Positions 1 to 18,749 of a DNA stretch of 64,000 bases are shown here, in pieces. Position 1 is the stretch's first letter. The number at the start of each line of letters is the position of its first letter. Made by a program: the position numbers and the translations under genes. The notes beneath the pieces were generated by a model, which searched no databases, was not told where the DNA came from, and worked only from the letters and a program-made list of their open reading frames with translations. This DNA is from Nitrospira sp. CR1.2 (GTDB taxonomy: Bacteria > Nitrospirota > Nitrospiria > Nitrospirales > Nitrospiraceae), in assembly GCA_014055495.1 (NCBI GenBank), contig WIAG01000012.1, positions 706 through 64,705 on the forward strand. The letters run 5' to 3'.

Positions 1-772
1 GCGCCAACGCGGGATGGAGCCCCAGCCTATGATGACCAAGCTGCGCATCCGCCGCGCGCCCATCGTCTTCGGAATGCACCAGATACACTTTGAGGAAATC
101 CGGTCGACCGCTCACGATCACCGGCCACTTGGCCTCAACCTCGGCATCGGTATCGACCACGACGTAGGAGCGGTTTTCGAACCAGCCCCGTTCGATCGGC
201 CCGACGGCCGGCTCATACCGCCCGACCCGCAACACGTCTTCGTACAAGGCGACGGGATGCCCGCCGCGTCCGGTCAGCCCGGCATGCGCAAAGGTGACGT
301 CGATGCTCGTCGGCACGTTGACGGCGCGCCGGATCTGCAACGCGAAGTCCCGCACGTCGTTCGGATTCTTCACGTAGAACACGCCGTCCTGCAGATAGCG
401 CTGCGCGACTGCCTGCACATTCCACAACCCCTCGACGTTGTGGTTGTGCGCCTCTCCGAACGGCGGAACCATGTAGAGGCCGGAAAGATCCACGGTCTGA
501 ACCGGTCCAGGTGGCCGCTGTCTGGTCAGGCGTCCCTGAACCGAATACCAGGTATCGGGCTGAAACTGCTCCCCGTCGAACCATCGGCCGTTGACGAAGG
601 CATAGGGCTCCGCCGACGGCGCAGGCGCGATGCCTGCACTCCCGGCGCAACCGGTAGCCGTCAACGCAAGCAGCACCGGCGTGAGCAGACCGCGCAAGAC
701 CTTGCCGCAGCGCCGTGCGAACATCGCAATCCCGCTGCTGCCCAGTCCCGGCCCCGTTCGCCTGTTCGTCAT
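1..772 (-). CDS. amidohydrolase-family lipoprotein, N-terminal ~257 codons only (3' end lies beyond window start)
   Basis: Hand translation of the minus strand from ATG 772..770 stays open to nt 1. It is absent from the ORF track because there is no stop in the window. Sequence: MTNRRTGPGLGSSGIAMFARRCGKVLRGLLTPVLLALTATGCAGS (lipobox LTATGC) ... GLYMVPPFGEAHNHNVEG (H-x-H metal motif as in amidohydrolases) ... DFLKVYLVHSEDD. ATGA start/stop overlap with the upstream gene. Confidence 0.5.
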   Translation of the reverse strand, partial: MTNRRTGPGLGSSGIAMFARRCGKVLRGLLTPVLLALTATGCAGSAGIAPAPSAEPYAFVNGRWFDGEQFQPDTWYSVQGRLTRQRPPGPVQTVDLSGLYMVPPFGEAHNHNVEGLWNVQAVAQRYLQDGVFYVKNPNDVRDFALQIRRAVNVPTSIDVTFAHAGLTGRGGHPVALYEDVLRVGRYEPAVGPIERGWFENRSYVVVDTDAEVEAKWPVIVSGRPDFLKVYLVHSEDDGRAADAQLGHHRLGLHPALA

Positions 773-963
773 AGACTGAGATTCATTTCGTGCGTCTTGT
801 TCCTCTGGACCAGCCGATCCAGCGAGTCGCGAAACACCCGCAGGCTGCCTCGGCCGATCTTGGTGCCTTCCAACCGGCCGTCTTCCACCCACCGATAAAT
901 CGTCCACCGGCTCACCGCCAACACATCCGCCGCTTCCCCGACGCGCAAGAGTTGCTTGTTCAT
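769..963 (-). CDS. small helix-turn-helix DNA-binding protein (excisionase/MerR-like HTH family)
   Basis: MNKQLLRVGEAADVLAVSRWTIYRWVEDGRLEGTKIGRGSLRVF fits the excisionase-type HTH pattern. AAAGGAGA lies 5 nt upstream of ATG 963. The track ORF 769..1020 carries an unsupported N-extension. Confidence 0.7.
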   Translation of the reverse strand: MNKQLLRVGEAADVLAVSRWTIYRWVEDGRLEGTKIGRGSLRVFRDSLDRLVQRNKTHEMNLSL

Positions 964-1027
964 GGCAATCTCCTTTGAAGTACATACGCGGGCGGCACCG
1001 CCGTGCGATGCCGCCCGCATCCGATGG

Positions 1028-3361
1028 TTAGAACAGTCCCAACGTCACACCGGCATAAAACGACCGGCCGTAGCCGGCGAAGAACAAGGTTTTGTTCGCA
1101 TCCGCCGTACTGTCGGCCACCACGTTGCCGGAGGCTGCATATTTCTTGTCGGCGATGTTGTCGATCTCCGCAAAGAACTTCGCAAACCGGATCCACTTGT
1201 TGTTGTGAAACTCAAAGTTCTTATGGATATTCAGGTTGGCGATTACGAAGGACGGGATGCCCACCGTGTTGTTGTTGTTCAGGAAGTAACTGTTCATGTA
1301 GTTGACTTCGACCCAACCGCCCCACCCGCTGCCGGCATGGTCGTACGATTCCTTGAAGTTGAAGGTATCGGTCGGCACGTTTGGAACCACCTTCCCGTCC
1401 CGCACGAAGGCCGTCGGAATCCCACCGGCCAGGAACCGATCGCTGAAGTTGATGTAGCGCGCGTCGATGTGGGTATAGGCGCCGGAGAACCGTAACCCGT
1501 CCAAGGGCCGCCAGTCGTAGAAGAATTCAATGCCGCGATATTGCGACGAGTCGGCGTTGATCGCAGCCTGACCGCCGGTGTTGGAGACGACCTGGGTGAT
1601 GATCTCGTCTTTGACGAACGTGACAAACCCGACCAATTGCACGGTCAAGGTCTTGTGGAGGCGTGACTCCGTCCCGAGTTCGACGTTCAGGTTCTTCTGC
1701 GGTTTCAGATCGAAGTTGGTTCCCGCCAGACCCGTGAAGGGGTTGGTCAACAGATTGCCGAACCCCGGAATGGCATACCCCGTGGATGCGCGTACCCAAT
1801 GCCGATACCCATCGCCCGGCTTCCAGCTGACCGATACTTCCGGCGCCCAATTGCTGAAGCTGCGCTCGGCCCCGGCCCGACCGCTCACCGCCCCGGCGTT
1901 ATAGCTGATCGTCTGCACGCTCAACTGCGATTGTTCGAAACCTAGTCCAGCCGCCAGGGTCCACTTCGGAATGAATTCCAATTCCTCCCGGACCCGGCCG
2001 CCGATGTTGCGAATGGTGCCGCGGCTGTTCTGCGCCAACGTGCCGCGCGTCCCGAAGAAGTCCTGGAGGTTATTGAAGGTATTCCCTTCCTGCTCCATCT
2101 GATTCACGAAAAAGCCGACGTAGCTGCGCAAGGGCATGTCGAAGAGCCGCCCGTCGTGTCGCAGATCCGTGTAATGTTTGTAGTTCGGATTGATGTTGTC
2201 GCTGATCTGCGTGAAGGTCTGATTGATGTCCTTCACGTCGTAGTCGGCTTCCATGGTCAGGACGGTGTTGGCGTTGATCTGCCGCTCGTACATTCCGCCG
2301 ATGATATTGCGCCGATCCAACCGCCGTTGCCCCAACAGCACGGCATTCGTCGCGTTGCTGATGCCGCCGGCCTGCCGGTGATCGGTGTTGAACTGGTTGA
2401 TCGTCAACCTGGTCGGCACCCGCGAATCCAGCCAGTTCGTGATGGCCTTGAAGTACAAGTTCTGTTTGTCGTCCACCTTCACGCGAAAATTGAAATTCAT
2501 CGTTTGCGTACTGTAATCGCTGTGGCGAATGAAACCGTCCTCCGACACGTGGCTGCCGAACAGCGAGATATCCACATTGTCGAACTGCTGGCCGACGGCA
2601 AACGCATACTTCTGATACCCGTACGAACCGCCGGTGATGAAACTTTCCATCCCATTGATGTCGCTGCCGCGCCTGGTGCGGAAGTGCACCATCCCGCCGA
2701 GTGCGTAATTGTCATAGAGCGACGACGAGGCGCCGCGCGTGACTTCCACGCTCCGCATGAACCAGGGATCGTGGATATCCAGGCGGGATAATCCGTCCGA
2801 CTGCGTCTGGATAAATCCGTCCTCGTACATCTTGATTTCACGCACCGCAAAGGAGGTTTTCACGCCGGAGCCGCGGATCGAAATACTGAAATCGCGCGGG
2901 CCGTTGGCCTGTCGCAACACCACCCCGGGGAGGGACTCCATGGATTCACGAAGCGTCCTCGTCGGCTGCGATTCGGTTTCCGATTGTTCGGTCGCTGAGA
3001 GTGAGAGGCCCTCAGGTCGTCGCTGCACACGGGTGCTTACGATGCTCACATCGGACAGTTCGTACTGTGGGATTGGCTCTGCCGCGGCAGCCGCCTCCGA
3101 CGATTCTCCCACCGTCGCCGGCTGAACCGGCTGTACCGGGGTGACTGCCGCGCCGCCCGGCGGTTGCTGCTGGAGTTCCTCTAACTCCCGCAGAATGTTC
3201 TGCAGTTGATCTTTGAGGTCCCGTTCCCGCGCACTGTTGTCGACACCGGCTCCTGCGCCCGATTCCTGCGCCAAGGAAACGGCGGGAGCTAGACCGATGG
3301 CCGAACACAGCACACAACCTGCGAAGACATAATGCCTGAATGATTGAATAGTGGCCCACAT
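1028..3361 (-). CDS. TonB-dependent outer-membrane receptor
   Basis: Signal peptide MWATIQSFRHYVFAGCVLCSAIGLAPAVSLAQE, TonB-box-like LSDVSIVST, plug-like PGVVLRQANGPRDFSISIRGSG, a long barrel region and a terminal ...YAGVTLGLF. GGGAGG lies 6 nt before ATG 3361; the track start 3388 is a GTG extension. Confidence 0.9.
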   Translation of the reverse strand: MWATIQSFRHYVFAGCVLCSAIGLAPAVSLAQESGAGAGVDNSARERDLKDQLQNILRELEELQQQPPGGAAVTPVQPVQPATVGESSEAAAAAEPIPQYELSDVSIVSTRVQRRPEGLSLSATEQSETESQPTRTLRESMESLPGVVLRQANGPRDFSISIRGSGVKTSFAVREIKMYEDGFIQTQSDGLSRLDIHDPWFMRSVEVTRGASSSLYDNYALGGMVHFRTRRGSDINGMESFITGGSYGYQKYAFAVGQQFDNVDISLFGSHVSEDGFIRHSDYSTQTMNFNFRVKVDDKQNLYFKAITNWLDSRVPTRLTINQFNTDHRQAGGISNATNAVLLGQRRLDRRNIIGGMYERQINANTVLTMEADYDVKDINQTFTQISDNINPNYKHYTDLRHDGRLFDMPLRSYVGFFVNQMEQEGNTFNNLQDFFGTRGTLAQNSRGTIRNIGGRVREELEFIPKWTLAAGLGFEQSQLSVQTISYNAGAVSGRAGAERSFSNWAPEVSVSWKPGDGYRHWVRASTGYAIPGFGNLLTNPFTGLAGTNFDLKPQKNLNVELGTESRLHKTLTVQLVGFVTFVKDEIITQVVSNTGGQAAINADSSQYRGIEFFYDWRPLDGLRFSGAYTHIDARYINFSDRFLAGGIPTAFVRDGKVVPNVPTDTFNFKESYDHAGSGWGGWVEVNYMNSYFLNNNNTVGIPSFVIANLNIHKNFEFHNNKWIRFAKFFAEIDNIADKKYAASGNVVADSTADANKTLFFAGYGRSFYAGVTLGLF

Positions 3362-3470
3362 ACACATCCTCCCGGCACAACGGTGCACACGACAGAAGAG
3401 ACCATCCCCTCCCGCCCCTGTCTGAACGGACGAGAAGAGAAGCTAGCCGACCTAGCGATATGAAAGGGAA

Positions 3471-3794
3471 TTACGACTGAACAGAGGGTGGTGCGCGAGA
3501 GGCGACGGGAAAGCCGCCGCCGCCCGCGACGATGGAATGGCTGTCCTCGACAAGAGGCGTCGCCACGAGAACCGGCTGCAGAAGCAGAGCCACAGGGCCC
3601 GCATCGGATGTCGGATTGGCCTGACAGGCCCAGGCACAGAAACCGGAGTGCGACACTGTTCCACCGTGATGGTGGGCGGCCGGTTTCGGATCGGCATGGT
3701 CCACCACGCAGGCCACGGAAAACAGCGCCAGGACCAGGTATAGTCCTGCCAACGCAGCCGCGCATCGTGTAAACGCTGGTTTTCTCCGCATCAT
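3471..3794 (-). CDS. small exported/membrane-anchored His-rich CxWxC protein, paralog 1 of 3
   Basis: 107 aa. MMRRK plus a hydrophobic helix, then AAHHHGGTVSHSGFCAWACQ and C-terminal SRAPP. Its ATG overlaps the stop of the upstream tlpA-like gene (ATGA at 3791-3794). Paralogous to 6853..7164 and 9701..10006. Confidence 0.6.
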   Translation of the reverse strand: MMRRKPAFTRCAAALAGLYLVLALFSVACVVDHADPKPAAHHHGGTVSHSGFCAWACQANPTSDAGPVALLLQPVLVATPLVEDSHSIVAGGGGFPVASRAPPSVQS

Positions 3795-4330
3795 GGCATC
3801 AAACTTTGCACGGCACGAACCGCATCGGGCGCATCCCAGTCGCGCGGCCCGACGGCCCGCCCGATCAGGGTGCCTTGGGGATCGATAAAGACGGTCGTCG
3901 GGAGCGCCCGCACCAGATAGGCATGGGACACGTCGTGATCTTCGTCAAACAATACCGGCAACTGCACTTTCACATTCGCGAGAAACTGTGCGATCCCTTG
4001 CCGCTGTAAATCGGTCGTGATCGTCAGCAGGGCGAACCGATCGGGATCCAACTGCTGACGCAAGCGCCCGAGCGCCGGCATCTCTTCTTTGCAGGGTCCG
4101 CACCAGGTGGCCCAGAAATTGACCACGACGACCTTCCCCTTCAAGTCAGCCAGCTGCACTCGCGATCCATCCAAGGCGGTCAGCGCGAACGGCGCAGCCA
4201 CAGTGCCGGTCCCAACTCGTCCGATTTTGAGTACTGCCAGGGGATCCTCCGCCGACGCAGAGCCGACCAAGCCGGCCGCAAGCCAGAAGGCAAGGAACAG
4301 CACCAGCCTGCGCATCCTGTTTTCCCTCAT
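3791..4330 (-). CDS. TlpA/ResA-like periplasmic thiol:disulfide oxidoreductase (copy 1)
   Basis: Signal peptide MRRLVLFLAFWLAAGLVGSASA. Thioredoxin-fold active site VVNFWATWCGPC and a conserved cis-Pro region LPTTVFID. Confidence 0.85.
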   Translation of the reverse strand: MRENRMRRLVLFLAFWLAAGLVGSASAEDPLAVLKIGRVGTGTVAAPFALTALDGSRVQLADLKGKVVVVNFWATWCGPCKEEMPALGRLRQQLDPDRFALLTITTDLQRQGIAQFLANVKVQLPVLFDEDHDVSHAYLVRALPTTVFIDPQGTLIGRAVGPRDWDAPDAVRAVQSLMP

Positions 4331-4349
4331 CGTGACGACTCACACAGGC

Positions 4350-5654
4350 TTATTGCACCGCCTGGGCCGCCACGGGGGCGGGTGACAGCCGCAACGTCTG
4401 CGTCACAATTTTATGACCGGGCATGGCATGTTCCATCCAAGCCAGGGCAAAGATGCCCTGCCGATTCACCGCCACGACCGGCGTCTGACTTTTTCGCTCG
4501 TTCAATTTGTGCGGAGTCGTAAAATCGGCCCCCCGGTCGGTCGAGACACTCATCACCACATCGCGTTTCACCGGCCCCTGCTCCTCCCAGATCACGACCA
4601 GCCGTCCCTCGGGGTCGACGGCAATCTGCGGATGGTCGGGGAAGGTATTCCTGGAGACGTTCAATTGCCGCTTCGGCGAGAACGTGCGCCCCCGATCGTC
4701 CGAGTAGGCCATATAGACGGCGGGGATTTCATCGGTGCCTTCCGTGTACCACACGACGTACAACCGTCCCTGCCGGTCCACGCCCATGGAAGCGGGACGG
4801 TGGGGGCAGGCCGGAAACACCCACTTGTCATGACCGACAATCACGGGCGGCTCGAACGTCTCACCGTAGTCCGTTGAACGCGCCACGACGGTTTCCCGCA
4901 CATTGCCCTCGAAAATTTTTCGCCAGGCCACGTAGACCATGCCGTCGGGGCCACTCGTCACTGCCGTACGGCAGCAGACACAGGTCCCCTCGTCCACCTT
5001 GAGGTTCCTGGTGATGGTCACACCCCGATCCAACGACCGCGCGACATAGGTGCCCGGCTCTTTTTTACCTTCACGCCCATCGATCCAGGAGAGGTGCAGG
5101 CGGCCATCCGCGTCACGATGGAGCGCATCGAAGGTATGTTGGATGACACCAGGATCGTCGTTGACCACGATCGAGGGCTGGAAAGTCCGCCCTCTGTCCG
5201 TGGAACGGCTGAGGCGCAACTCGGTCGCAAACGGTTGTTGCGGGGTGGCTTTCGGATGGGCCAATCCCCAGGTGACGAACACGTCGTCCCCCTGCACGAC
5301 CAGGGCTGGGGCTTCTTGTCGCCAATAGGGCACGTCTTCGGGACGATTGATGCGCACCGGCGCGCCCATCGGCCCGCCCGGTTCCGTGCTGCGGGCGTAC
5401 AGAACAGACCGGACCTCCTTATCTTCTTCCATCCAGGCCAGCGACAAGGCCCCGGCATCATCGATCTGTACCGACGGTCCCACCAAACTTTTTACTTTGT
5501 GCTCGGTGATCACCTTGGGACCAAGCTCCCCGGGCAGCGCCGTTTCCGCGAAGGCCGGCTGTATCATCGGCAACAACCCCAGCACGAGTCCGGCGCACAA
5601 GGCCCGTCGACCTGGTCTCGACATCGGCACCATCCGTCGCCTGCTCTGGATCAT
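4350..5654 (-). CDS. secreted BNR/Asp-box repeat beta-propeller protein (sialidase-like fold)
   Basis: Signal peptide followed by five S-x-D-x-G-x-T-F-type Asp boxes (SRSTDRGRTF, SLDRGVT, STDYGETF, SDDRGRTF, STDRGADF). Also CVCC and ACPH motifs. The start could be M11 (5624). Confidence 0.75.
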   Translation of the reverse strand: MIQSRRRMVPMSRPGRRALCAGLVLGLLPMIQPAFAETALPGELGPKVITEHKVKSLVGPSVQIDDAGALSLAWMEEDKEVRSVLYARSTEPGGPMGAPVRINRPEDVPYWRQEAPALVVQGDDVFVTWGLAHPKATPQQPFATELRLSRSTDRGRTFQPSIVVNDDPGVIQHTFDALHRDADGRLHLSWIDGREGKKEPGTYVARSLDRGVTITRNLKVDEGTCVCCRTAVTSGPDGMVYVAWRKIFEGNVRETVVARSTDYGETFEPPVIVGHDKWVFPACPHRPASMGVDRQGRLYVVWYTEGTDEIPAVYMAYSDDRGRTFSPKRQLNVSRNTFPDHPQIAVDPEGRLVVIWEEQGPVKRDVVMSVSTDRGADFTTPHKLNERKSQTPVVAVNRQGIFALAWMEHAMPGHKIVTQTLRLSPAPVAAQAVQ

Positions 5655-5704
5655 GACTTCCCCCGTTGGAACATAAGCAGGAACCGCGCAACCAGCCGGG
5701 CCCC

Positions 5705-6742
5705 TCAGGCCCCCGGTGTGAACAATTGAAAATACTTGGTCACGCCGAACGTGTAACTGGTCGCCTGCGCAAGATTGTTATTGGCGTCCCGATAGAGGGG
5801 CACCTGGGCATAAAAGTACGCCTGCCACGTATCTCCGATATTGAACAGCACCCCGGGCGCGGCGCCGAACCAGGACGAACCGGTATTGGGAATCCCATGG
5901 TCCAGGATCGGTCCTGAACCGATGCTCCCGCTCAAACTATCATGCGTCATGTACCGATAATTCACCTGTGCCGTGAACACCAGCCACGGCAACGTCACCA
6001 GATTGAACCCGCCGTTGACAATGTATTCGTCGCCGAATTGATAGCCATCGTTGTTCTTGAAGGTATGCCGATAGCTGGCGAATACGAATTGATTCAAGCG
6101 GTGAGGGAGAATTTCATAGGACTGATACATCGTGCCCACCAAGCCGAATTGACCACGTCCCAGTTGACCGGCCGGTTCCAACACTCCGCCCAGGTTGTCC
6201 GTCTGCCGGTAATCACCGGTCGGCAGCTCCGTGCCGACCCCGAAGACCAGCATGTTCTTCAGCGAGGCCAGGACATTGTATTTCGCCATGACCCGGATAT
6301 CGCCGATCCCCTTGTCGGAAAAGCGGCTGAGGTCCTCGTTCTGTCCTTGGTGGAAATGATAATGCTCATGCCGGCGCGTCATGTAGGGCAAGGTCACCTG
6401 CAATCCGAACCGATCCGTTACGCCGTAGTTGAAATCGAGAGCAAAAGAATTCGTATACGTCGAACGCTCATTGTGGTGATTGGGGATGATGCGCCGCCCG
6501 ATCTGGTCGGCCTCGGCGATGAGGCCGGTCGACCCGCTGGGCAAATTCATGGGCGTATAACTATAGATAAAGTTCATGGTCAGCAGACCGGCTTGCGGCA
6601 CCTGCTGCTGAGACCCGATCGTCACAAAACAACTGACGGCACCGCAGGCAGCCTCGGCCGTAGGCAGAAGCGCCACAGTCCCGGCAGCCACCGTCACGAT
6701 TCCAAGCACAGACACCCACAGTCTTCTACTGAGAGCCCACAT
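5705..6742 (-). CDS. outer-membrane beta-barrel protein (MetA-pathway/transporter-like OMP family) with His-rich loop
   Basis: Signal peptide MWALSRRLWVSVLGIVTVAAGTVALLPTAEA. Alternating barrel-like sequence with GIGDIRV...GTELPTGDY typical of this OMP family, and a RRHEHYHFHQ loop. The track start 6751 is TTG; ATG 6742 follows GAAAGGA. Confidence 0.6.
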   Translation of the reverse strand: MWALSRRLWVSVLGIVTVAAGTVALLPTAEAACGAVSCFVTIGSQQQVPQAGLLTMNFIYSYTPMNLPSGSTGLIAEADQIGRRIIPNHHNERSTYTNSFALDFNYGVTDRFGLQVTLPYMTRRHEHYHFHQGQNEDLSRFSDKGIGDIRVMAKYNVLASLKNMLVFGVGTELPTGDYRQTDNLGGVLEPAGQLGRGQFGLVGTMYQSYEILPHRLNQFVFASYRHTFKNNDGYQFGDEYIVNGGFNLVTLPWLVFTAQVNYRYMTHDSLSGSIGSGPILDHGIPNTGSSWFGAAPGVLFNIGDTWQAYFYAQVPLYRDANNNLAQATSYTFGVTKYFQLFTPGA

Positions 6743-6852
6743 CACGCACAATCCTTTCTCCCATCACAGTTGACGGGACGGGTCGCGCCCGAAGAAACCT
6801 CCGGCGGAGACACCACAGTTGATGAATGACCACGATGAGCGAGGGAACCGAG

Positions 6853-7164
6853 TCAGGACCGGGAGGAGTCGGGAGGGCCCCGTGATGTCCACAGGGCACG
6901 GGATTCGACCGACAAGGAATCGAACAGGATGTCATCGATCTGGGTCACGACGGGAATCGTCACGGGGACCGACTCAGGCACCGGCTCGAGATCTTGACCG
7001 GCCGCACACATCCAAGAACAGACCACGGTCCCGTGCACACCGGCGTCGTGGTGCGCATGTTGCGACAGGTGCTCCAGCATGTACGGATACACAACCCCTT
7101 GAAGTGCCAGATAGGCGCAGGACAGCAGGAGCGGCATCACGGTATGTCGTACACGGATCATCAT
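6853..7164 (-). CDS. small exported/membrane-anchored His-rich CxWxC protein, paralog 2 of 3
   Basis: 103 aa. MMIRVRH plus a hydrophobic helix, then QHAHHDAGVHGTVVCSWMCA and C-terminal SRGPP. It starts 4 nt after the stop of tlpA-like copy 2. Confidence 0.6.
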   Translation of the reverse strand: MMIRVRHTVMPLLLSCAYLALQGVVYPYMLEHLSQHAHHDAGVHGTVVCSWMCAAGQDLEPVPESVPVTIPVVTQIDDILFDSLSVESRALWTSRGPPDSSRS

Positions 7165-7168
7165 ACGA

Positions 7169-7711
7169 TTAGTGCAAAGAAGCCGCCTTCACGGGCGCGG
7201 CTTGCTGAATCCGACGGACGATCTCCTGGATTTTGTGCTCCGTCAGCAACCCGCCTTTGATGTACTCCTGCACCACCCCCTGCTGGTCGATAAACACACT
7301 GACCGGCAGGCCGAACACCCCATATTGGTTCGCCACCTGATTTTCGCGATCCAACAGCACCGGGAAGGTGTGTTGGTACTGTTGAATGTGCTCGCGCACC
7401 TTGGCCTCCTCTTCCAACTCATTCACGGCCAGCACCACAAAGTCCTTATCGCGCAGCCGGTCGTAGACCGCCTGCATCGCGGGCATTTCTGAGGTGCAGG
7501 GCTTGCACCAGGTCGCCCAAAAATTCACCAGGACGATTTTCCCACGATAGTGCTCCAGGCTGTGCGCCTGGCCCTGGAGATCCTTCAGCGAAAACTCCGT
7601 GGCTGGCATTCCGGCAGCGGGAGGCCGGGAGCCCATCGCCAGGGCCGAGCCAACCAACGTCGACAGGAACAGGGTCGCCACCATCAGGTTCCGCGTCAGA
7701 CCTGCTGTCAT
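7169..7711 (-). CDS. TlpA/ResA-like periplasmic thiol:disulfide oxidoreductase (copy 2)
   Basis: Active site LVNFWATWCKPC and cis-Pro region LPVSVFID. Signal peptide MTAGLTRNLMVATLFLSTLVGSALA. GGAGA lies 9 nt upstream of ATG 7711; the track start 7756 is an extension. Confidence 0.85.
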   Translation of the reverse strand: MTAGLTRNLMVATLFLSTLVGSALAMGSRPPAAGMPATEFSLKDLQGQAHSLEHYRGKIVLVNFWATWCKPCTSEMPAMQAVYDRLRDKDFVVLAVNELEEEAKVREHIQQYQHTFPVLLDRENQVANQYGVFGLPVSVFIDQQGVVQEYIKGGLLTEHKIQEIVRRIQQAAPVKAASLH

Positions 7712-7772
7712 CTTCGTCGATCTCCTACAGACTCGTGACGGCGGCTCGCTTACCAAGTGCTCCTCGCTCGCC

Positions 7773-8972
7773 TTACCGGTTCAGGCTGTAGCTGACCGGC
7801 AGATGCAGGACAACCATCGGGGCCGTCAACTCATGTTTCATATGCAGAGGACAGGCCCGCCGGACCGCTTCCATCGCCGCTTGATCCAAGGACTCATGTC
7901 CGGAACTCTTCACGACCTCCACGTCCTTCAGTTGGCCGTCGTTGCGGATGGAGACCTTGAGCACCACCTTGCCTTCCCAACCGTTCAGGCGCGCCGTGCT
8001 GGGGTAATGTCTCAACTCGATGATGCGGCGATGCAGCGACTCGGCTAACCATCCGTAATCGGCCTTCGCAGTCGGTCTGGCGACGGCGGCCTGAGCCACC
8101 ACCTGATGTTCCCGCAAAGTGGCCGGATCCGGCTCGGACACCGCCGCCATCGGCGCAGGCGGCTCCACCACGGCCTCGACCGGCGCCTGAGGCGCAGAAA
8201 CGGGCTCACTCACGGCAGCAACCACCGGTTCGGCCGCAGGCGCGGAGGGTGCCGGGGTCGGGGGGTGCTCCACCGCTGCGACAGCCGGAGCGCTATGCAC
8301 CACTGGTGCGCTGGCCGTCACCACTGGTTCCTGAACCGTTTCCACCACCGCCGGCGCATTGACGACCGACTGGGCTTGATAGGTCTGGGCCGTGACAGGA
8401 GCCGCTTCCGTCACCTGCTGTTCAACCACTGGAGCCACCTCCCGCTGCACTTCGGCAGGGGCGGAGGCCTGCACCACCGGCTCCGTCTGGTGAATGTGTT
8501 GCGGTTCGACGGGCTTCGCTTGCATCTGGACGATTTCCTGCTTCGGGTGGATCTGCTCCTGCGGGCGAACCGTTTCGACGACCGGCTGCGGTTCCCGCTG
8601 CACCGCCTGCACCACCCGCTCGACAGGCTGTACGACACGCTGAACCGGCTGCGGCTCGACCCTGGTCTCCACCTGGCGCTGGACCGGCTCAGGCGGGGGT
8701 TGGACGGTGCGCACCGGCTCGGGGCGCGGATTCACCGGGGTCGGGGCAGGGGGCTGGACAGCCGTGGCCGGCTGCTCTTGACGAACGACTTCACGCGGCG
8801 GCTCGACCAGGGCGACATCCCACTTGAAGGGTTCCTTTTCCACCATCACGGACATCTTCGGCAACAACCCGAAGGCCACGAGTGCCAGGCAGGCGTGCAA
8901 CACCAGCGAGGCCCCCCAGCCGGTCACCGCCTGCCTCGAATCCCCCGATTGCGCCACGAACACGTTCTCCAT
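7773..8972 (-). CDS. tonB: energy transducer TonB
   Basis: N-terminal anchor GWGASLVLHACLALVAFGLL, a very long P/V/Q/E-rich linker, and the C-terminal TonB domain YPSTARLNGWEGKVVLKVSIRNDGQLKDVEVVKSSGHESLDQAAMEAVRR. Confidence 0.85.
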   Translation of the reverse strand: MENVFVAQSGDSRQAVTGWGASLVLHACLALVAFGLLPKMSVMVEKEPFKWDVALVEPPREVVRQEQPATAVQPPAPTPVNPRPEPVRTVQPPPEPVQRQVETRVEPQPVQRVVQPVERVVQAVQREPQPVVETVRPQEQIHPKQEIVQMQAKPVEPQHIHQTEPVVQASAPAEVQREVAPVVEQQVTEAAPVTAQTYQAQSVVNAPAVVETVQEPVVTASAPVVHSAPAVAAVEHPPTPAPSAPAAEPVVAAVSEPVSAPQAPVEAVVEPPAPMAAVSEPDPATLREHQVVAQAAVARPTAKADYGWLAESLHRRIIELRHYPSTARLNGWEGKVVLKVSIRNDGQLKDVEVVKSSGHESLDQAAMEAVRRACPLHMKHELTAPMVVLHLPVSYSLNR

Positions 8973-9007
8973 GAGGATGGCCCCTTTCGACGCGATGCGC
9001 CCCGCCG

Positions 9008-9469
9008 CTACTTGAACACCACTTTCGAGACCGACCCGATCGGGACTTCAACCTGACCGAAATCGGATTCACCCTTGAAGCTGCCGCTCACCGCCGGGAT
9101 AAAATCTCCGTTCTTGCCGTTGGTCAGGGTCACGGTCATGGCCGGAGCACTCTTGTCGGCGCCGGGCTTGACCTCGATCTGCTTGATCTGGTCGAACTTG
9201 ATATTGACCGTCGCCGTGCCACGCTTCGCCGGCAGATGCCGTAACTCATGCGGGACAAAGGAGGTCTCGCTCATTTTCTCTTCCCAATAAAAAATGCCGT
9301 TCTTCAGCTCGGTCTCGACGCCCTGCTGATCGGTCACCGCCATCGTGAACGTCTTCTCAGCCTTCGCGTCGGCCGAAAAGGCAACCGGCGCCGAGGCCAA
9401 GACCGCCGCCCCCGCGAGCGCGCACACGGCCATCCGCACCATCCACTGATTGATCTGGTTCTTCATCAT
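9008..9469 (-). CDS. secreted hypothetical protein (beta-rich, ~153 aa)
   Basis: MMKNQINQWMVRMAVCALAGAAVLASAPVAFSA signal peptide. GAAGGA RBS upstream of ATG 9469; the track ORF start 9619 is an extension. Confidence 0.55.
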   Translation of the reverse strand: MMKNQINQWMVRMAVCALAGAAVLASAPVAFSADAKAEKTFTMAVTDQQGVETELKNGIFYWEEKMSETSFVPHELRHLPAKRGTATVNIKFDQIKQIEVKPGADKSAPAMTVTLTNGKNGDFIPAVSGSFKGESDFGQVEVPIGSVSKVVFK

Positions 9470-9700
9470 TCCTTCACTCCCTCGAACAAGACATGCCACG
9501 ACATCATCGCGATACCTACACAGATACTGCCCCCCAGTGCCGCGAACAGGAAGACCCCTGCCCGGCACATCTCGCCTCCGGATTGACGACGGTATGAAGA
9601 AGCACTGCACCCACAGCATGCGAGACTCCTCGCCTGACTGCTCACTCAGACTCGGCGACGATCAGCCGCGGAGCCGGAATCGGGACAACGGGAACGAAGA

Positions 9701-10006
9701 TCAGACCAAGAAGGGTGGTGCGCGAGACTCACTCAGGGAGTGAGACTGGGGGGAAAACAAACGATCGGAGTCACATCCGACCTCACCGGACAAGGAAAAC
9801 AGATGAGTCGCGTGCAGGGGGGTCACAACATGAACCCCGGCGGTCGCACACATCCAGGCGCAGATCCCTGATCCATGCATGGCGGCATCGTGGTGAGCCG
9901 CATGCTGGAGTTCATGTGCGACGGCGCTGCCGGTGGTCACCGCCAATAAGGCGATCACGGCGAGGGCGACAATCCAGACAATACCTTTGAAGTGGGAACT
10001 TCGCAT
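9701..10006 (-). CDS. small exported/membrane-anchored His-rich CxWxC protein, paralog 3 of 3
   Basis: 102 aa from ATG 10006. MRSSHFKGIVWIVALAVIALLAV, then QHAAHHDAAMHGSGICAWMCA and C-terminal SRAPP. The track start 10153 would overlap the TPR gene. Confidence 0.6.
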   Translation of the reverse strand: MRSSHFKGIVWIVALAVIALLAVTTGSAVAHELQHAAHHDAAMHGSGICAWMCATAGVHVVTPLHATHLFSLSGEVGCDSDRLFSPQSHSLSESRAPPFLV

Positions 10007-10032
10007 ATAACAAAGACCGTAATCTGGCGGGC

Positions 10033-10062
10033 ATGCTAACAAACTCGCCGCGGGAGCGTCAA
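10033..10062 (-). promoter_or_regulatory. candidate sigma70-type promoter for the uptake operon
   Basis: Minus strand reads TTGACG (10062..10057), an 18-nt spacer, then TAGCAT (10038..10033). It sits ~27 nt upstream of ATG 10006. Confidence 0.3.
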
Positions 10063-10103
10063 CGCCACTTTTTCCCTCCGAAGGGCCATTCGGCCGGGGC
10101 CAA

Positions 10104-11198
10104 CTATGGTCCCCCCACACCGATGATGCGTTCCACCCGCTCATCGCGCCCACCGAGATCTCGATAGCGCCGGTACTGGGCCAACGCGCGCCCCATGTCC
10201 TTGCGGTGGAGTTCGTAAAACACCCCCAGACTATAATGGGCCTCGGCGGAATTCGGCTTCAGCGCCACGGCCCGTTCATATTCCCGCTCGGCTTCTTCCA
10301 CACGATTGAGGCTGGTGTAGACCATTCCGAGGTTCAGGTGGGCTTCGGCATATTCGGGACGATACCGGATGACCTCCAGCAACTCCCGCTCGGCCTCCGC
10401 GAGCAGCCCTTGGCTTTTATAGACGAAGGCCAGGTTGTAATGGGCGTCGACCAAATCGGCCTTGACCGCGATCGCTTCCCTCAGCGCGGCTGCCGCGGCA
10501 TTCAAATCGTTTCCCCGCTCCGCCAGGCGCCCGAGCAGATACCAGGCGTCGGCATGCCTGGGATTCGCCTGCGTCAGACGGGCCAATTGCTCGCGAGCCA
10601 GAGTGAGATCGCCTTGGCTCTCGTACAGGCTTGCCAAATGGTACAAGGCCTCGGCGTGGTCCGGCCGCACGCGGAGGAGCGCCTGGTACATCTTTACGGC
10701 GTTGGGGCGATCGCGGCGTTCCTCATAGAGTCGCGCCAGGTCCAGGTGGGCTTCTTCGTTCCCCGGTGCAATATCCAACACTTGGCGCAACACCTGTTCT
10801 GCCTCGTCGCCTCGCCCTTGCGCGAGATACACGTCTGCCAGATCGTTCAAAATCTCGGCGTAAGGAGAGACATATTTCAACGCCTGTTTGTAGGCCTGAA
10901 TGGCTTCGTCGGGGCTCCGTTTGCTCTGAAAATAGACCAGCCCCAGGACATGGTGGGCCTCAGCCAGTCGGGGGTTCTGCGCCAGGGCTTTTTTCAGCGC
11001 CTCGATGGCGCCGTCCGCATTGCCCTCGCGAAACAGGGCCACGCCCCGCTCGTAACTGCGGCGGGCTGCGTCCGGCGAGGGAGAGGATGCCGACCATGCC
11101 TCAGGGAAGTCGGGCACAAGCGCAAGCAGGCAACCGAGCAAGAGGCTCGAGAGGAAATGACGCGAACAGTTGAGCCCTTGCCGCATCACGATCCGCAA
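10104..11198 (-). CDS. secreted tetratricopeptide (TPR) repeat protein
   Basis: Signal peptide, then about 8 consecutive 34-aa TPR-like units (e.g. AEAHHVLGLVYFQSKRSPDEAIQAYKQALKYVSP, AEALYHLASLYESQGDLTLAREQLARLTQANP). Confidence 0.8.
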   Translation of the reverse strand: MRIVMRQGLNCSRHFLSSLLLGCLLALVPDFPEAWSASSPSPDAARRSYERGVALFREGNADGAIEALKKALAQNPRLAEAHHVLGLVYFQSKRSPDEAIQAYKQALKYVSPYAEILNDLADVYLAQGRGDEAEQVLRQVLDIAPGNEEAHLDLARLYEERRDRPNAVKMYQALLRVRPDHAEALYHLASLYESQGDLTLAREQLARLTQANPRHADAWYLLGRLAERGNDLNAAAAALREAIAVKADLVDAHYNLAFVYKSQGLLAEAERELLEVIRYRPEYAEAHLNLGMVYTSLNRVEEAEREYERAVALKPNSAEAHYSLGVFYELHRKDMGRALAQYRRYRDLGGRDERVERIIGVGGP

Positions 11199-11448
11199 TG
11201 GAATCCGTGGGTGACTTCGGCGAGAGAGTCGACGAAGTGATGCGCCTCACTATAGAGAGCAGCGCAGGCGAAAGCAACGACGACACGGCGCGGCATGTCT
11301 CCATGGTGTGTGAGGATAAGGGTTGAGACCCTGGGCGCTGTTTCGGTAGGATTCCCTGTTCGATTCCTGTATACTCCGCCGCCGAGCCCATGCGGCAAGA
11401 GGAGAGCTTCGTCCGTAAGCCGGCTCGCGAGAACAAAGGTACGCCTGC

Positions 11449-14154
<2,706 letters not shown>

Positions 14155-16997: not shown

Positions 16998-18749
16998 ATG
17001 CAACCACTGCTTGAACGACTCATGACCGCCTTTCCCGACGCCATCCGCGGCGTGGAGGTGGACGCCGCGCGCAACGAAGTGACGGCCCGTGTGGCAGCCG
17101 CCCGGATTGTCGACGTGGCGCGCTGGCTGCACGACACGCCTGAGGCGGCCTTCGACCACATCACCGACATTTGCTCCGTCGACTACCCCAACGACGCGGA
17201 ACGATTCGAAGTGATCTATCAGCTGCTCTCGATCCCGCACCGGCGACGGATCAGACTGACAGCGCGCATCACTGAGGAGACACCGGAGATCGCGTCCGTC
17301 ACCGGTATCTGGAAGGGCGCCGAATTCATGGAGCGCGAAGTGTACGACCTGATGGGCATTACCTTCGTCGGACATCCGGACCTTCGTCGCATCCTGCTGC
17401 CGGAAGACTATGAAGAAGGCCATCCTCTGCGAAAAGACTTTCCGGCCGAAGGGCGAGGATGGCGTAGCTCGTTTCCATTCATTCCCCGCTTGGACGAAGC
17501 CCCTGAGGAGCAAACGGAAGGTGAAATTCCCGAAGAGGAAAAGCAGGTCTACCGGGCAGCCGAACAGCCGAGCAGCACACGGCGCCGAGAAGAACTCCTC
17601 CTGAACATGGGCCCGCAACATCCCAGCACCCATGGTGTGCTCCGGGTGGTGTTGGAATTGGACGGCGAGCGGATCGTCAAAGCCACCCCCGATCTCGGCT
17701 ATCTCCATCGCGGCGTCGAAAAGTTGGCGGAAGGCCTCCACTACATGCAGGTCATCCCCCATACCGATCGGCTCGACTATGTCTGCGCAATGACCAATAA
17801 CTATGCCTACGTGCGCGCGGTGGAAAAACTGCTCGACATTACGGTGCCGGAACGGGCGGAGTATGTCCGCACCGTCGTCGCCGAAATGCAGCGCATCATC
17901 GGCCACCTCTTCTGGTTAGGCACCCAGGCCCTCGACATCGGAGCCATGACGGTCTTCTTTTGGACGTTCCGGGAGCGCGAAATTCTCCTGGACATGTTCG
18001 AAAAGTTATGCGGCGCGCGCCTGACGCTGAACTACTATCGCATCGGCGGCGTCGACAGCGATTTCACACCCGATCTCGTGGCCCGCCTGAAGGCCTTTCT
18101 GCAGACCTTCCCGGAGAAGGTGAATGAGTACAACCAACTCCTCATGTCCAACCGGATCTGGGTGGGGCGAACCAAAGACATCGCGGTGATTTCGGCCGAA
18201 GACGCCATCAACTTCGGCCTGACCGGCCCGACGCTTCGCGGGTCGGGCGTCGACTACGACATCCGCAAATACGAGCCCTATGGCGTCTACGACAAGGTGG
18301 AATGGGAAGTCCCGGTCGGCAAACGGGGGGATACCTACGATCGCTATTGGGTGCGCATGGAGGAAATGCGGCAGAGCGCGCGCATCATCGCGCAATGCCT
18401 CGACCAGATGCCGGAAGGGCCGATCATGGCAGATGTCCCGCACGTGATCCCACCGCCGAAAGCCAAGGTCATGCGCGACATGGAAAGCCTGATTCACCAC
18501 TTTATTATCTTTACGCAAGGGTTCAAGCCGCCCAAGGGTGAAACCTATTGCGGAACTGAAGCCCCCAAGGGCGAACTCGGGTTTTTCCTCGTCAGCGACG
18601 GCAGCCCTCGCCCCTACCGGCTCAAGATTCGCGCCCCGTCCTTCATTCATATGGGCGCATTCGACCATATGGCGCGCGGGTACCTGATTTCAGACATCAT
18701 CACGATCTTCGGCACCTACGACATCGTGATGGGAGAATGTGATAGATGA
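16998..18749 (+). CDS. nuoCD: NADH-quinone oxidoreductase fused subunit C/D
   Basis: The N-terminal 30-kDa (NuoC) domain (WKGAEFMEREVYDLMGITFVGHPDLRRILLPEDY) is joined by an acidic linker to NuoD (LLLNMGPQHPSTHGVLRVVLELDGE ... DIVMGECDR). Confidence 0.95.
   Translation: MQPLLERLMTAFPDAIRGVEVDAARNEVTARVAAARIVDVARWLHDTPEAAFDHITDICSVDYPNDAERFEVIYQLLSIPHRRRIRLTARITEETPEIASVTGIWKGAEFMEREVYDLMGITFVGHPDLRRILLPEDYEEGHPLRKDFPAEGRGWRSSFPFIPRLDEAPEEQTEGEIPEEEKQVYRAAEQPSSTRRREELLLNMGPQHPSTHGVLRVVLELDGERIVKATPDLGYLHRGVEKLAEGLHYMQVIPHTDRLDYVCAMTNNYAYVRAVEKLLDITVPERAEYVRTVVAEMQRIIGHLFWLGTQALDIGAMTVFFWTFREREILLDMFEKLCGARLTLNYYRIGGVDSDFTPDLVARLKAFLQTFPEKVNEYNQLLMSNRIWVGRTKDIAVISAEDAINFGLTGPTLRGSGVDYDIRKYEPYGVYDKVEWEVPVGKRGDTYDRYWVRMEEMRQSARIIAQCLDQMPEGPIMADVPHVIPPPKAKVMRDMESLIHHFIIFTQGFKPPKGETYCGTEAPKGELGFFLVSDGSPRPYRLKIRAPSFIHMGAFDHMARGYLISDIITIFGTYDIVMGECDR

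Follow-up and report, generated by a model that had tools for sequence, protein, structure and literature searches.

The 64,000-nucleotide (nt) stretch of Nitrospira sp. CR1.2 DNA that we analysed (contig WIAG01000012.1; hereafter the window) carries on its minus strand an array of genes for envelope proteins, into which are set three open reading frames (ORFs) that we refer to as P1, P2 and P3. We consider it probable, by analogy with CruR and CutF, that these are cis-acting regulatory leader peptides of the CruR/CutF kind. In particular, because the invariant tetrapeptide R(A/G)PP at their C-terminal ends is a known ribosome-stalling signal, P1, P2 and P3 are most likely nascent-peptide sensors of metal by which a TonB-dependent uptake operon is turned on and off. 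A first-pass annotation of the window had taken them for stable periplasmic metal-relay proteins. We have set that interpretation aside on the grounds that the SR(A/G)PP ends hold the strongest arrest tetrapeptides, that CruR and CutF are regulatory, and that the architecture of the proteins favours a sensor that acts as a nascent chain. The three ORFs lie at the positions that the annotation had given:

3471..3794, minus strand: P1, 107 aa
6853..7164, minus strand: P2, 103 aa
9701..10006, minus strand: P3, 101 aa, the first gene of the operon

Among known bacterial ribosome-arrest tetrapeptides, none is stronger than RAPP and RGPP, which resist EF-P. Bacterial proteomes are depleted of both, and an enrichment is seen at the C-terminal ends of small secretory proteins whose genes lie 5' of those for TonB-dependent receptors, copper-related proteins and thioredoxin or DsbA (PMC12992588). 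P1, P2 and P3 have the features by which such peptides were recognized in that work, being secretory or membrane proteins of <300 aa that end soon after R(A/G)PP and are followed by a gene on the same strand. In CruR (Bp2923 of Bordetella pertussis), an exported upstream ORF and the prototype of Pfam DUF2946, a CXXC motif senses copper and RAPP stalls the ribosome, and the stall controls Rho-dependent termination ahead of the gene for a TonB-dependent transporter (PMC9426467); in vitro, CruR arrests with the P site on the first Pro (PMC12992588). The conserved spacing between Cys and RAPP, 45 residues in Bp2923, is a functionally important hallmark of DUF2946, and AhpC_TSA genes recur in cruR operons (PMC9426467). 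In CutF of Rhodobacter capsulatus, a CxxxC motif and a Pro-rich stall during Sec export open a hairpin before cutO (PMC9973294), and the current model holds that the stall ends when a disulfide forms in the part of the nascent chain that has reached the periplasm, which copper blocks (bioRxiv 10.1101/2025.02.05.636593). Both CruR and CutF, the characterized members of DUF2946, are regulatory nascent peptides rather than chaperones and were undetectable as proteins (PMC9426467, PMC9973294).

P1, P2 and P3 share a plan consisting of an export signal, a His cluster, CxWxC and a C-terminal R(A/G)PP, and the first-pass annotation had read both the His/Cys segments and the endings SRAPP (P1), SRGPP (P2) and SRAPP (P3) correctly. 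In P1, a basic N-terminus and a hydrophobic helix are followed by HADPKPAAHHHGGTVSH, CAWAC (residues 53-57; 3624-3638), a linker of 42 residues, RAPP (residues 100-103; 3486-3497), four further residues and the stop codon. P2 has a hydrophobic N-terminus, HLSQHAHHDAGVH, CSWMC (residues 49-53; 7006-7020), a 41-residue linker and RGPP (residues 95-98; 6871-6882), which lies five residues from the stop. P3 begins with a signal peptide (AVA|HE) and continues with the His cluster HELQHAAHHDAAMH, CAWMC (residues 49-53; 9848-9862), again 41 linker residues, RAPP (residues 95-98; 9713-9724) and three residues before the stop. The start of P3 is the ATG at 10006 and not the upstream GTG at 10153 given by the mechanical ORF list, because homologues begin MRSS and a promoter-like site sits at 10062-10033. 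Each of the three proteins combines a basic N-region with a hydrophobic core (Kyte-Doolittle maxima 1.75-3.2), and an obvious AxA cleavage site is absent from P1 and P2. An AlphaFold2 (AF2) model of P1 made from 130 sequences places a transmembrane or signal helix at 7-34, covers the Cys motif with a short helix and adds one helix of low confidence, with no globular fold predicted (predicted local distance difference test score, pLDDT, 71.5; predicted template-modelling score, pTM, 0.40).

The pairwise likeness of the three proteins is weak (expectation value, E, 4e-4 for P2/P3 and 4e-3 for P1/P3), and a single profile retrieves the orthologue groups of all three. With this common profile, the orthologue groups and the conserved His/Cys core, the earlier view that the proteins are paralogous and conserved holds. 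A six-frame translation of the 64-kb window has 16 occurrences of R[AG]PP in ORFs no shorter than 50 aa, and only in P1, P2 and P3 does it lie five residues or fewer from the stop, which argues that their likeness is not due to chance. (The next nearest occurrences, 12 residues before a stop, are in the ORFs 17801-18127 and 58198-58590; both were rejected as shadow ORFs, the real genes around them being nuoCD and one for a 1386-aa protein.)

Searches with a profile of P1-P3 found 181 proteins, all of them unnamed or 'hypothetical', none with a Pfam domain, and all of those with a named organism from Nitrospira or Nitrospirota; Pfam domains were likewise absent from the best 120 family members listed in a second family search. 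A HMMER search against 1.84 billion cluster representatives gave 329 matches at E<=1e-3, nearly all of about 100 aa, and every named or genome-derived member that we have seen belongs to the Nitrospirota. The closest homologues, going by their names, place the window in a Nitrospira of the N. defluvii group. The PDB held no sequence relative of the P peptides, and NCBIfam no model for them. Nine residues are invariant in 24 diverse members (H33, H42, H43, C53, W55, C57, R100, P102 and P103), and in 130 more distant members, in which mean column identity is just 20%, C53, C57, R100, P102 and P103 remain so. The tail is RAPP in 66 and RGPP in 65 of 148 new cluster representatives (131 in all), the rest being RSPP, RPPP or truncated fragments; R(A/G)PP stands 1-12 residues from the C-terminus, with a mode of 4. 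CxWxC (CX3C) was present in 128 of 131 representatives.

The distance between the Cys motif and the tail is held almost constant. The linker from CxWxC to the Arg measures 41 residues in 112 cluster representatives and 42 in 19, and 41-44 residues across 63 genomic copies taken from 28 Nitrospirales loci and the window. Its sequence is essentially unconstrained after the first four positions, with a mean pairwise identity of 17%, whereas the 20 residues preceding the Cys motif reach 43%, follow the pattern H-x2-HH-x-HH-x4-H-x4-CxWxC and contain 4-8 His. The His and Cys residues to which the first-pass annotation had drawn attention are thus the conserved core of the family. A linker fixed in length and free in sequence has the look of a ruler, not of a folded domain. 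Some Nitrospirales have four or five family copies within 20 kb, as in the loci that we number L021 (5590-20028), L024 (4315-14438), L011 (1591-19748) and L008 (19279-19614); variants in such multi-copy loci have CEWAC, CGWAC or CDWMC and a 44-residue spacing, beside a second, distantly related gene for a TonB-dependent receptor.

Two of the three ORFs are coupled to genes for TlpA-like proteins, as the first-pass annotation had proposed. The stop codon of tlpA1 overlaps the P1 start as ATGA at 3791-3794, and in its P2 counterpart the stop of tlpA2 (7169-7171) and the ATG at 7164 are 4 nt apart (gap 7165-7168). Both upstream genes encode thioredoxin-fold proteins (Pfam AhpC-TSA/Redoxin, E 1e-24 and 9e-31), which match the Pfam families AhpC-TSA, Redoxin and Thioredoxin_8 above their cut-offs and are 35% identical to each other (E 2e-27). 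Their top NCBIfam matches are ResA and TlpA, below the equivalog cut-offs: TlpA1 and TlpA2 score 107 and 80 bits against the TlpA model (cut-off 230) and 102 and 140 bits against the ResA model (cut-off 170). The unit of tlpA and small ORF is a conserved, tightly coupled module, a TlpA-like gene abutting 27 of the 63 copies, including every P1-type copy scored, and across loci the coupling takes the form of an ATGA overlap or a gap of 4-6 nt. Because P1 and P2 lack Shine-Dalgarno sequences of their own, their translation probably depends on termination-reinitiation after tlpA. Reducing a copper-binding Cys pair is the classical function of TlpA, which reduces ScoI and CoxB. It is plausible, by analogy, that the TlpA reductase keeps the Cys pair of a P peptide reduced in the periplasm and so poises a sensor. 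Since disulfide formation in the nascent chain releases the stall in the CutF model, a co-translated reductase would have a direct rationale.

Across 28 related loci the order of genes is conserved: TPR gene, P3, exported protein, TonB, [TlpA2, P2, OMP], BNR, TlpA1, P1, receptor, where OMP is an outer-membrane protein. TlpA1 abuts all 22 of the P1-type copies, and each of the 21 that have downstream sequence has the receptor gene next, 98-117 nt away. For P2-type copies, the abutting gene is TlpA2 and the next one encodes the OMP. P3-type copies lie after the TPR gene and before the gene for the exported protein or a BNR paralogue, and P3 orthologues are found in most loci whose contig covers that part of the operon. 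The window (5705-7756, minus strand), L003, L008 (N. defluvii), L019 and L022 have the TlpA2-P2-OMP module, which most other Nitrospira loci lack; where this cassette is absent, TonB is followed directly by the BNR gene. More distant Nitrospirota contigs show the order TlpA, P, (HTH_17), Phenol_MetA_deg OMP gene.

Within region 1000-10100 of the window, P3, the 154-aa exported protein, TonB, TlpA2, P2, OMP, BNR, TlpA1, P1, the receptor and HTH_17 follow one another as a single minus-strand array. The remaining features, the gene assignments having support from Pfam and NCBIfam, are:

10033..10062, minus strand: sigma-70-like promoter (TTGACG, 18 nt, TAGCAT, with TG before the second hexamer), about 27 nt 5' of the P3 ATG; a consensus match only
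9473..9700, minus strand: intergenic region between P3 and the gene for the 154-aa protein, 228 nt
9008..9472, minus strand: exported 154-aa protein, with homologues in Nitrospira/Nitrospiraceae only
7773..8972, minus strand: TonB-family protein, with a Pro-rich spacer and a TonB_C domain (Pfam, E 2.7e-17)
7169..7756, minus strand: TlpA2, membrane-anchored ResA/TlpA-like thiol:disulfide oxidoreductase, active site WCKPC
6743..6852, minus strand: intergenic region between P2 and the OMP gene, about 110 nt
5705..6751, minus strand: OMP, 348 aa, with CGAVSC in the mature N-terminus
4350..5654, minus strand: exported BNR/sialidase-like beta-propeller, 434 aa, with CVCC (residues 225-228) and ACPH (residue 283)
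3791..4330, minus strand: TlpA1, exported ResA/TlpA-like thiol:disulfide oxidoreductase, active site WCGPC
3362..3470, minus strand: intergenic region between P1 and the receptor gene, 109 nt
1028..3361, minus strand: TonB-dependent receptor (plug and barrel), likely start ATG 3361, 6 nt after GGAGGA
769..1020, minus strand: HTH_17 small DNA-binding protein, directly after the receptor gene

The site at 10062-10033 is the sole minus-strand promoter-like site upstream of the operon in a scan of 800-11500, and is a candidate promoter for the whole operon. For the 154-aa exported protein (9008-9472, minus strand) we found 533 homologues with many invariant residues, no Pfam or NCBIfam match, and no fold match for the AF2 model (pLDDT 59). 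The OMP (5705..6751) has no Pfam match of its own; its positional counterparts, the genes that follow a P-type ORF in L029 and L030, contain PF13557 (Phenol_MetA_deg). A paralogue of the BNR beta-propeller, 37-42% identical, stands directly 3' of P3 in L006, L008, L011, L027 and L028. The propeller itself (4350-5654) is possibly a metal-binding protein and an alternative TlpA client. The receptor is generic and gave no lead to the transported ligand, PqqU being its best NCBIfam match, far below the cut-off; a match to the OprC type (TIGR01778) is absent from the NCBIfam list. The HTH_17 gene (769..1020) may be part of the operon unit, and its product may be a transcriptional regulator of the P-peptide system. 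HTH_17 (excisionase/MerR-like) genes are also found near P-type ORFs in other Nitrospirota contigs, at L029:8534-8848, L030:8518-8835 and L031:1403-1639, where they lie directly between the P-type ORF and the Phenol_MetA_deg OMP gene or just 5' of the P-type ORF. The locus is flanked by secA and nuo (complex I) genes, at 11449-14154 and 16998-18749 on the plus strand, and since the same flank is found in a distant Nitrospirota genome (L029:1-5698) the neighbourhood is old. The secA gene is divergent from the operon and downstream of none of the RAPP peptides.

The regions that follow the three P stop codons have a UUCCC-type pyrimidine run at their starts in common. The P1-receptor region (3362..3470), whose sequence is highly conserved across loci, starts pyrimidine-rich and has hairpins A (GCUAG..CUAGC, with a U/C run after it), B (CUUCUCUUCUCGUCC/GGGGCGGGAGGGG) and C, the last of which touches the receptor gene's Shine-Dalgarno sequence, GGGAGGA. 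The P2-OMP region (6743..6852) begins with a C-rich, G-poor stretch (CUCGGUUCCCUCGCUCAUCG) and has a hairpin, only partly conserved, that abuts the GGGAGAAAGGA Shine-Dalgarno sequence, and the P3-side region (9473..9700) has a pyrimidine-rich start (UCUUCGUUCCCGUUGUCCCGAUUCC) and conserved hairpins, with weak covariation, the last of which pairs with the Shine-Dalgarno and start region. Excess of C over G of the kind seen at Rho-utilization (rut) sites characterizes tracts that straddle the P stops on the minus strand (3423-3542, 6801-6920 and 9675-9770). Indeed, apart from the Pro-rich spacer of TonB, the 78-nt intervals with the strongest excess in the 9-kb operon are those at the three P stop codons, and among the 63 copies the interval at the P stop ranks in the top 5% of its own locus in 45 cases and in the top 10% in 59. 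These tracts are compatible with a rut-like site that a stalled ribosome could mask, as proposed for CruR.

Single-sequence folds of the intergenic regions were no better than those of shuffled sequences, except at 9460-9600 (z = -2.0). In RNAalifold alignments of 18, 13, 5 and 6 sequences, the hairpin pairs were mostly invariant or partly broken, with few compensatory changes, and we therefore claim no specific attenuator or shielding structure. Rfam gave no match at E<=1 for 800-11500. Terminator-like hairpins after P1 (3456-3442) and P2 (6815-6802) carry no weight because the scan in which they appeared found 10 such hairpins where 8.7 were expected from shuffles.

We propose the following mechanism, in which each P peptide would be translated and its N-terminal signal would engage the Sec pathway. 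The ribosome would stall once its P site held the first Pro codon of R(A/G)PP and its A site the next one; at that point the peptidyl-transferase centre would be 43-48 residues away from CxWxC and about 51-64 away from the His cluster, and we infer that the His/Cys segment would be just outside the exit tunnel or threading the translocon. Metal bound to the His/Cys(/Met) segment would alter the duration of the stall. At low metal, the stalled ribosome would cover the C-rich, G-poor tract, Rho would be blocked and the next genes would be expressed, whereas in the presence of metal the stall would be released, the ribosome would leave and Rho would terminate transcription. We prefer this polarity, which is that of CruR, because the controlled genes are for uptake. 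P3 would gate entry into the operon, P2 the outer-membrane channel along with the genes beyond, and P1 the TonB-dependent receptor, while the TlpA-like reductases, translated just before P2 and P1, would keep the Cys pair reduced such that it reports metal and not disulfide closure. The metal is probably copper, which is favoured by the characterized relatives, the His/Met/Cys ligand set and the precedent of TlpA; Zn, Ni or Co is possible. A more elaborate proposal is that the operon forms a serial circuit of three checkpoints, in which each co-translated TlpA would hold the CxWxC of a stalled, SecYEG-threaded peptide reduced, so that one stall would integrate metal and redox signals and meter the TonB-uptake machine. 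We regard this circuit as a tentative and somewhat unlikely elaboration.

Several points weigh against reading P1, P2 and P3 as metal-sensing arrest peptides. The C-richness at the stops is due in part to the linker's codons for Pro, Ser, Leu and Ala and to those of RAPP, and, since the intergenic hairpins show little covariation, the sequences demonstrate neither a Rho nor a Shine-Dalgarno-shielding mechanism. DUF2946 genes are systematically first in their operons (Roy et al. 2022, PMC9426467); here P1 and P2 are internal and coupled to tlpA, and only P3 is first behind a promoter-like site. TlpA could equally serve other Cys-bearing exported proteins, namely the BNR protein (CVCC, ACPH) and the OMP (CGAVSC), and the receptor is not of the OprC copper type, so that copper is no more than the probable metal. 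In the literature we found no experiment on stalling, metal binding or regulation in the P family, nor relevant work on copper or TonB regulation in Nitrospira. Moreover, the relation to DUF2946 (Pfam PF11162, gathering cut-off 23.7 bits) falls short of that cut-off throughout: P1 scores 13 bits (E 0.18) and P2 and P3 give no match, the best individual score is 20.0 bits (P0169, residues 22-100 on profile positions 31-117), and, of the family consensus sequences, the P1-like one scores 12.4 bits and the other two give no match.

The first-pass annotation had raised the DUF2946 relation as a possibility, and it stands in part. DUF2946 is the commonest Pfam match among relatives, matching 15 of 130 at E<=0.1 (best E 2.8e-4) where no other Pfam family matches more than 4, and its alignments are collinear and end exactly at the C-terminal RAPP of the profile; every match that we saw was below the gathering cut-off. 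The sequences suggest that the P family is probably a very diverged homologue of CruR and CutF, with convergence a possible alternative, and homology is suggestive, not proven, because the DUF2946 cut-off is never reached. A tblastn search of P1 against plasmids gave no match, Nitrospira and Nitrospirota are absent from the published list of more than 2000 CruR homologues, and Nitrospira does not appear in the part of the CutF paper's supplementary lists available to us. What we put forward is a CruR/CutF-like mode of working; we do not claim demonstrated membership of DUF2946.

A translational, Rho-independent route with the logic of CutF, in which metal would switch the downstream genes on, is unlikely in our judgement. 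The Cys motif of the P family is CX3C, as in CutF (CxxxC), and not the CXXC of CruR (PMC9973294); the distance from Cys to stall is similar, CutF having C41xxxC45 in a mature protein of 90 residues with a C-terminal stall motif; the export signals are conserved; and predicted hairpins touch the Shine-Dalgarno regions of the genes for the receptor (hairpin C), the OMP and the exported protein. A ribosome stalled at RAPP, however, would be 60-200 nt short of these hairpins and could not melt them over that distance, and the hairpin pairs are mostly invariant or partly broken rather than replaced by compensatory changes. The motif is the RAPP/RGPP of CruR and not the PPP of CutF, and the downstream genes (TonB, receptor) are of uptake type, which one would not expect excess metal to induce except where the ligand is a nutrient complex.

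The proteins might alternatively be stable, anchored or periplasmic His/Cys metallochaperones that hand copper on to machinery for uptake or assembly after TlpA has reduced their cysteines, with RAPP incidental or an interaction tag. The conserved His/Cys/Met-rich site, the conserved translational coupling to TlpA-like reductases, the precedent of ScoI and CoxB, and the possibility that P1 and P2 remain anchored for want of an obvious AxA site all fit such a role, which we nonetheless judge very unlikely. The tail is restricted to the two strongest arrest tetrapeptides, no more than about 12 residues from the stop; the roughly 37 residues between site and tail are free in sequence and fixed in length, which is odd for a folded chaperone, and no fold is predicted; and CruR and CutF act as nascent peptides, undetected as proteins (PMC9426467, PMC9973294). 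Taken together, the hypervariable linker of fixed length, the lack of a predicted fold, the envelope-gene context and the C-rich intergenic starts fit a sensor better than a relay. We give similarly little credence to the idea that the peptides are redox monitors and not metal sensors, in which nascent CxWxC would report the thiol-disulfide status of the periplasm or the activity of TlpA, disulfide pulling would free the stall and the operon would be tuned to redox conditions. The CutF model includes disulfide pulling (bioRxiv 10.1101/2025.02.05.636593), thioredoxin and DsbA genes can have RAPP/RGPP peptides with conserved Cys pairs encoded 5' of them (PMC12992588), and the P peptides adjoin TlpA-like genes, one of which a family member precedes in L021. 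Nevertheless, the 4-8 conserved His and the Met beside the Cys pair would be needless in a pure redox sensor and point to metal, the controlled genes encode components of TonB uptake and not redox enzymes, and TlpA lies upstream, not downstream, of P1 and P2.

Metal-sensing arrest peptides have been described only in 2022-2025, from two proteobacterial examples, CruR and CutF, which have opposite logic and unresolved mechanisms. New here are a Nitrospirota-wide branch that is invisible to Pfam, an unusually exact ruler, three copies in one operon and the coupling to TlpA. Pfam DUF2946 misses this whole phylum-level branch, the genes of which are annotated as 'hypothetical' or 'exported protein of unknown function'. 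The clean architecture (a His6-Cys2 site, a ruler of 41-42 residues, and RAPP or RGPP only) would make the family a good system in which to follow how ligand binding outside the tunnel reaches the peptidyl-transferase centre, and the conserved coupling offers a direct handle on the proposed role of Cys redox chemistry in stall release. Our reading would extend the regulatory principle to nitrite-oxidizing and comammox Nitrospira, which are key in the nitrogen cycle and whose trace-metal regulation is largely unknown. If the serial circuit were true, it would provide the first dedicated enzyme to act on an arrest peptide and the first arrest peptides in series within one operon.

Compared with known systems, the P family combines a Cys motif of the CutF type (CX3C) with a stall motif and target gene of the CruR type. 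Like the P peptides, CruR is a small exported peptide with a Cys metal motif, a linker of conserved length and RAPP a few residues before the stop, has a C-rich tract compatible with a rut site and has AhpC_TSA genes in its operons; no fold is predicted for CruR as reported, and the same holds for P1. CruR lies directly 5' of the gene for a TonB-dependent transporter with 162 nt between them, where the P1 and P3 regions measure about 110 nt and 228 nt. The two differ in that CruR has CXXC where the P peptides have CxWxC (CX3C) preceded by 4-8 His, a spacing of 45 residues in 145 aa as opposed to 41-42 residues in about 100 aa, and a place at the head of its operon, as opposed to three copies in one operon, of which two lie within it and are translationally coupled to a TlpA-like gene. 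CutF and the CutF-like superfamily, in turn, share with the P peptides a Sec-exported nascent sensor with CxxxC about 40 residues before a C-terminal stall motif. Their metal sites are built from Cys, His or both, and the length of the stall is proposed to be set by periplasmic Cys redox chemistry. CutF, unlike the P peptides, stalls on PPP in an EF-P-dependent manner and controls a multicopper oxidase through a stem-loop directly 3', whereas the P peptides have RAPP or RGPP and adjoin genes for uptake-type envelope proteins; no dedicated reductase adjoining cutF has been reported. ApdA, ApdP, ApcA and SecM (PMC7897499; PMC10951233; PMC12992588) are likewise small secretory proteins with the tetrapeptide close to the C-terminal end and another gene 3' of them on the same strand, but they monitor protein export and control sec or yidC genes, lack a His/Cys metal site and show no similarity to the P peptides in the residues before RAPP.

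TlpA1 and TlpA2, for their part, resemble reductases of the TlpA/ResA/CcmG type in their thioredoxin fold, WCxPC active site and N-terminal anchor or signal. The clients of those enzymes are a cuproenzyme subunit or chaperone, whereas the client proposed here would be a nascent regulatory peptide. The conserved coupling of such peptides to TlpA is new.

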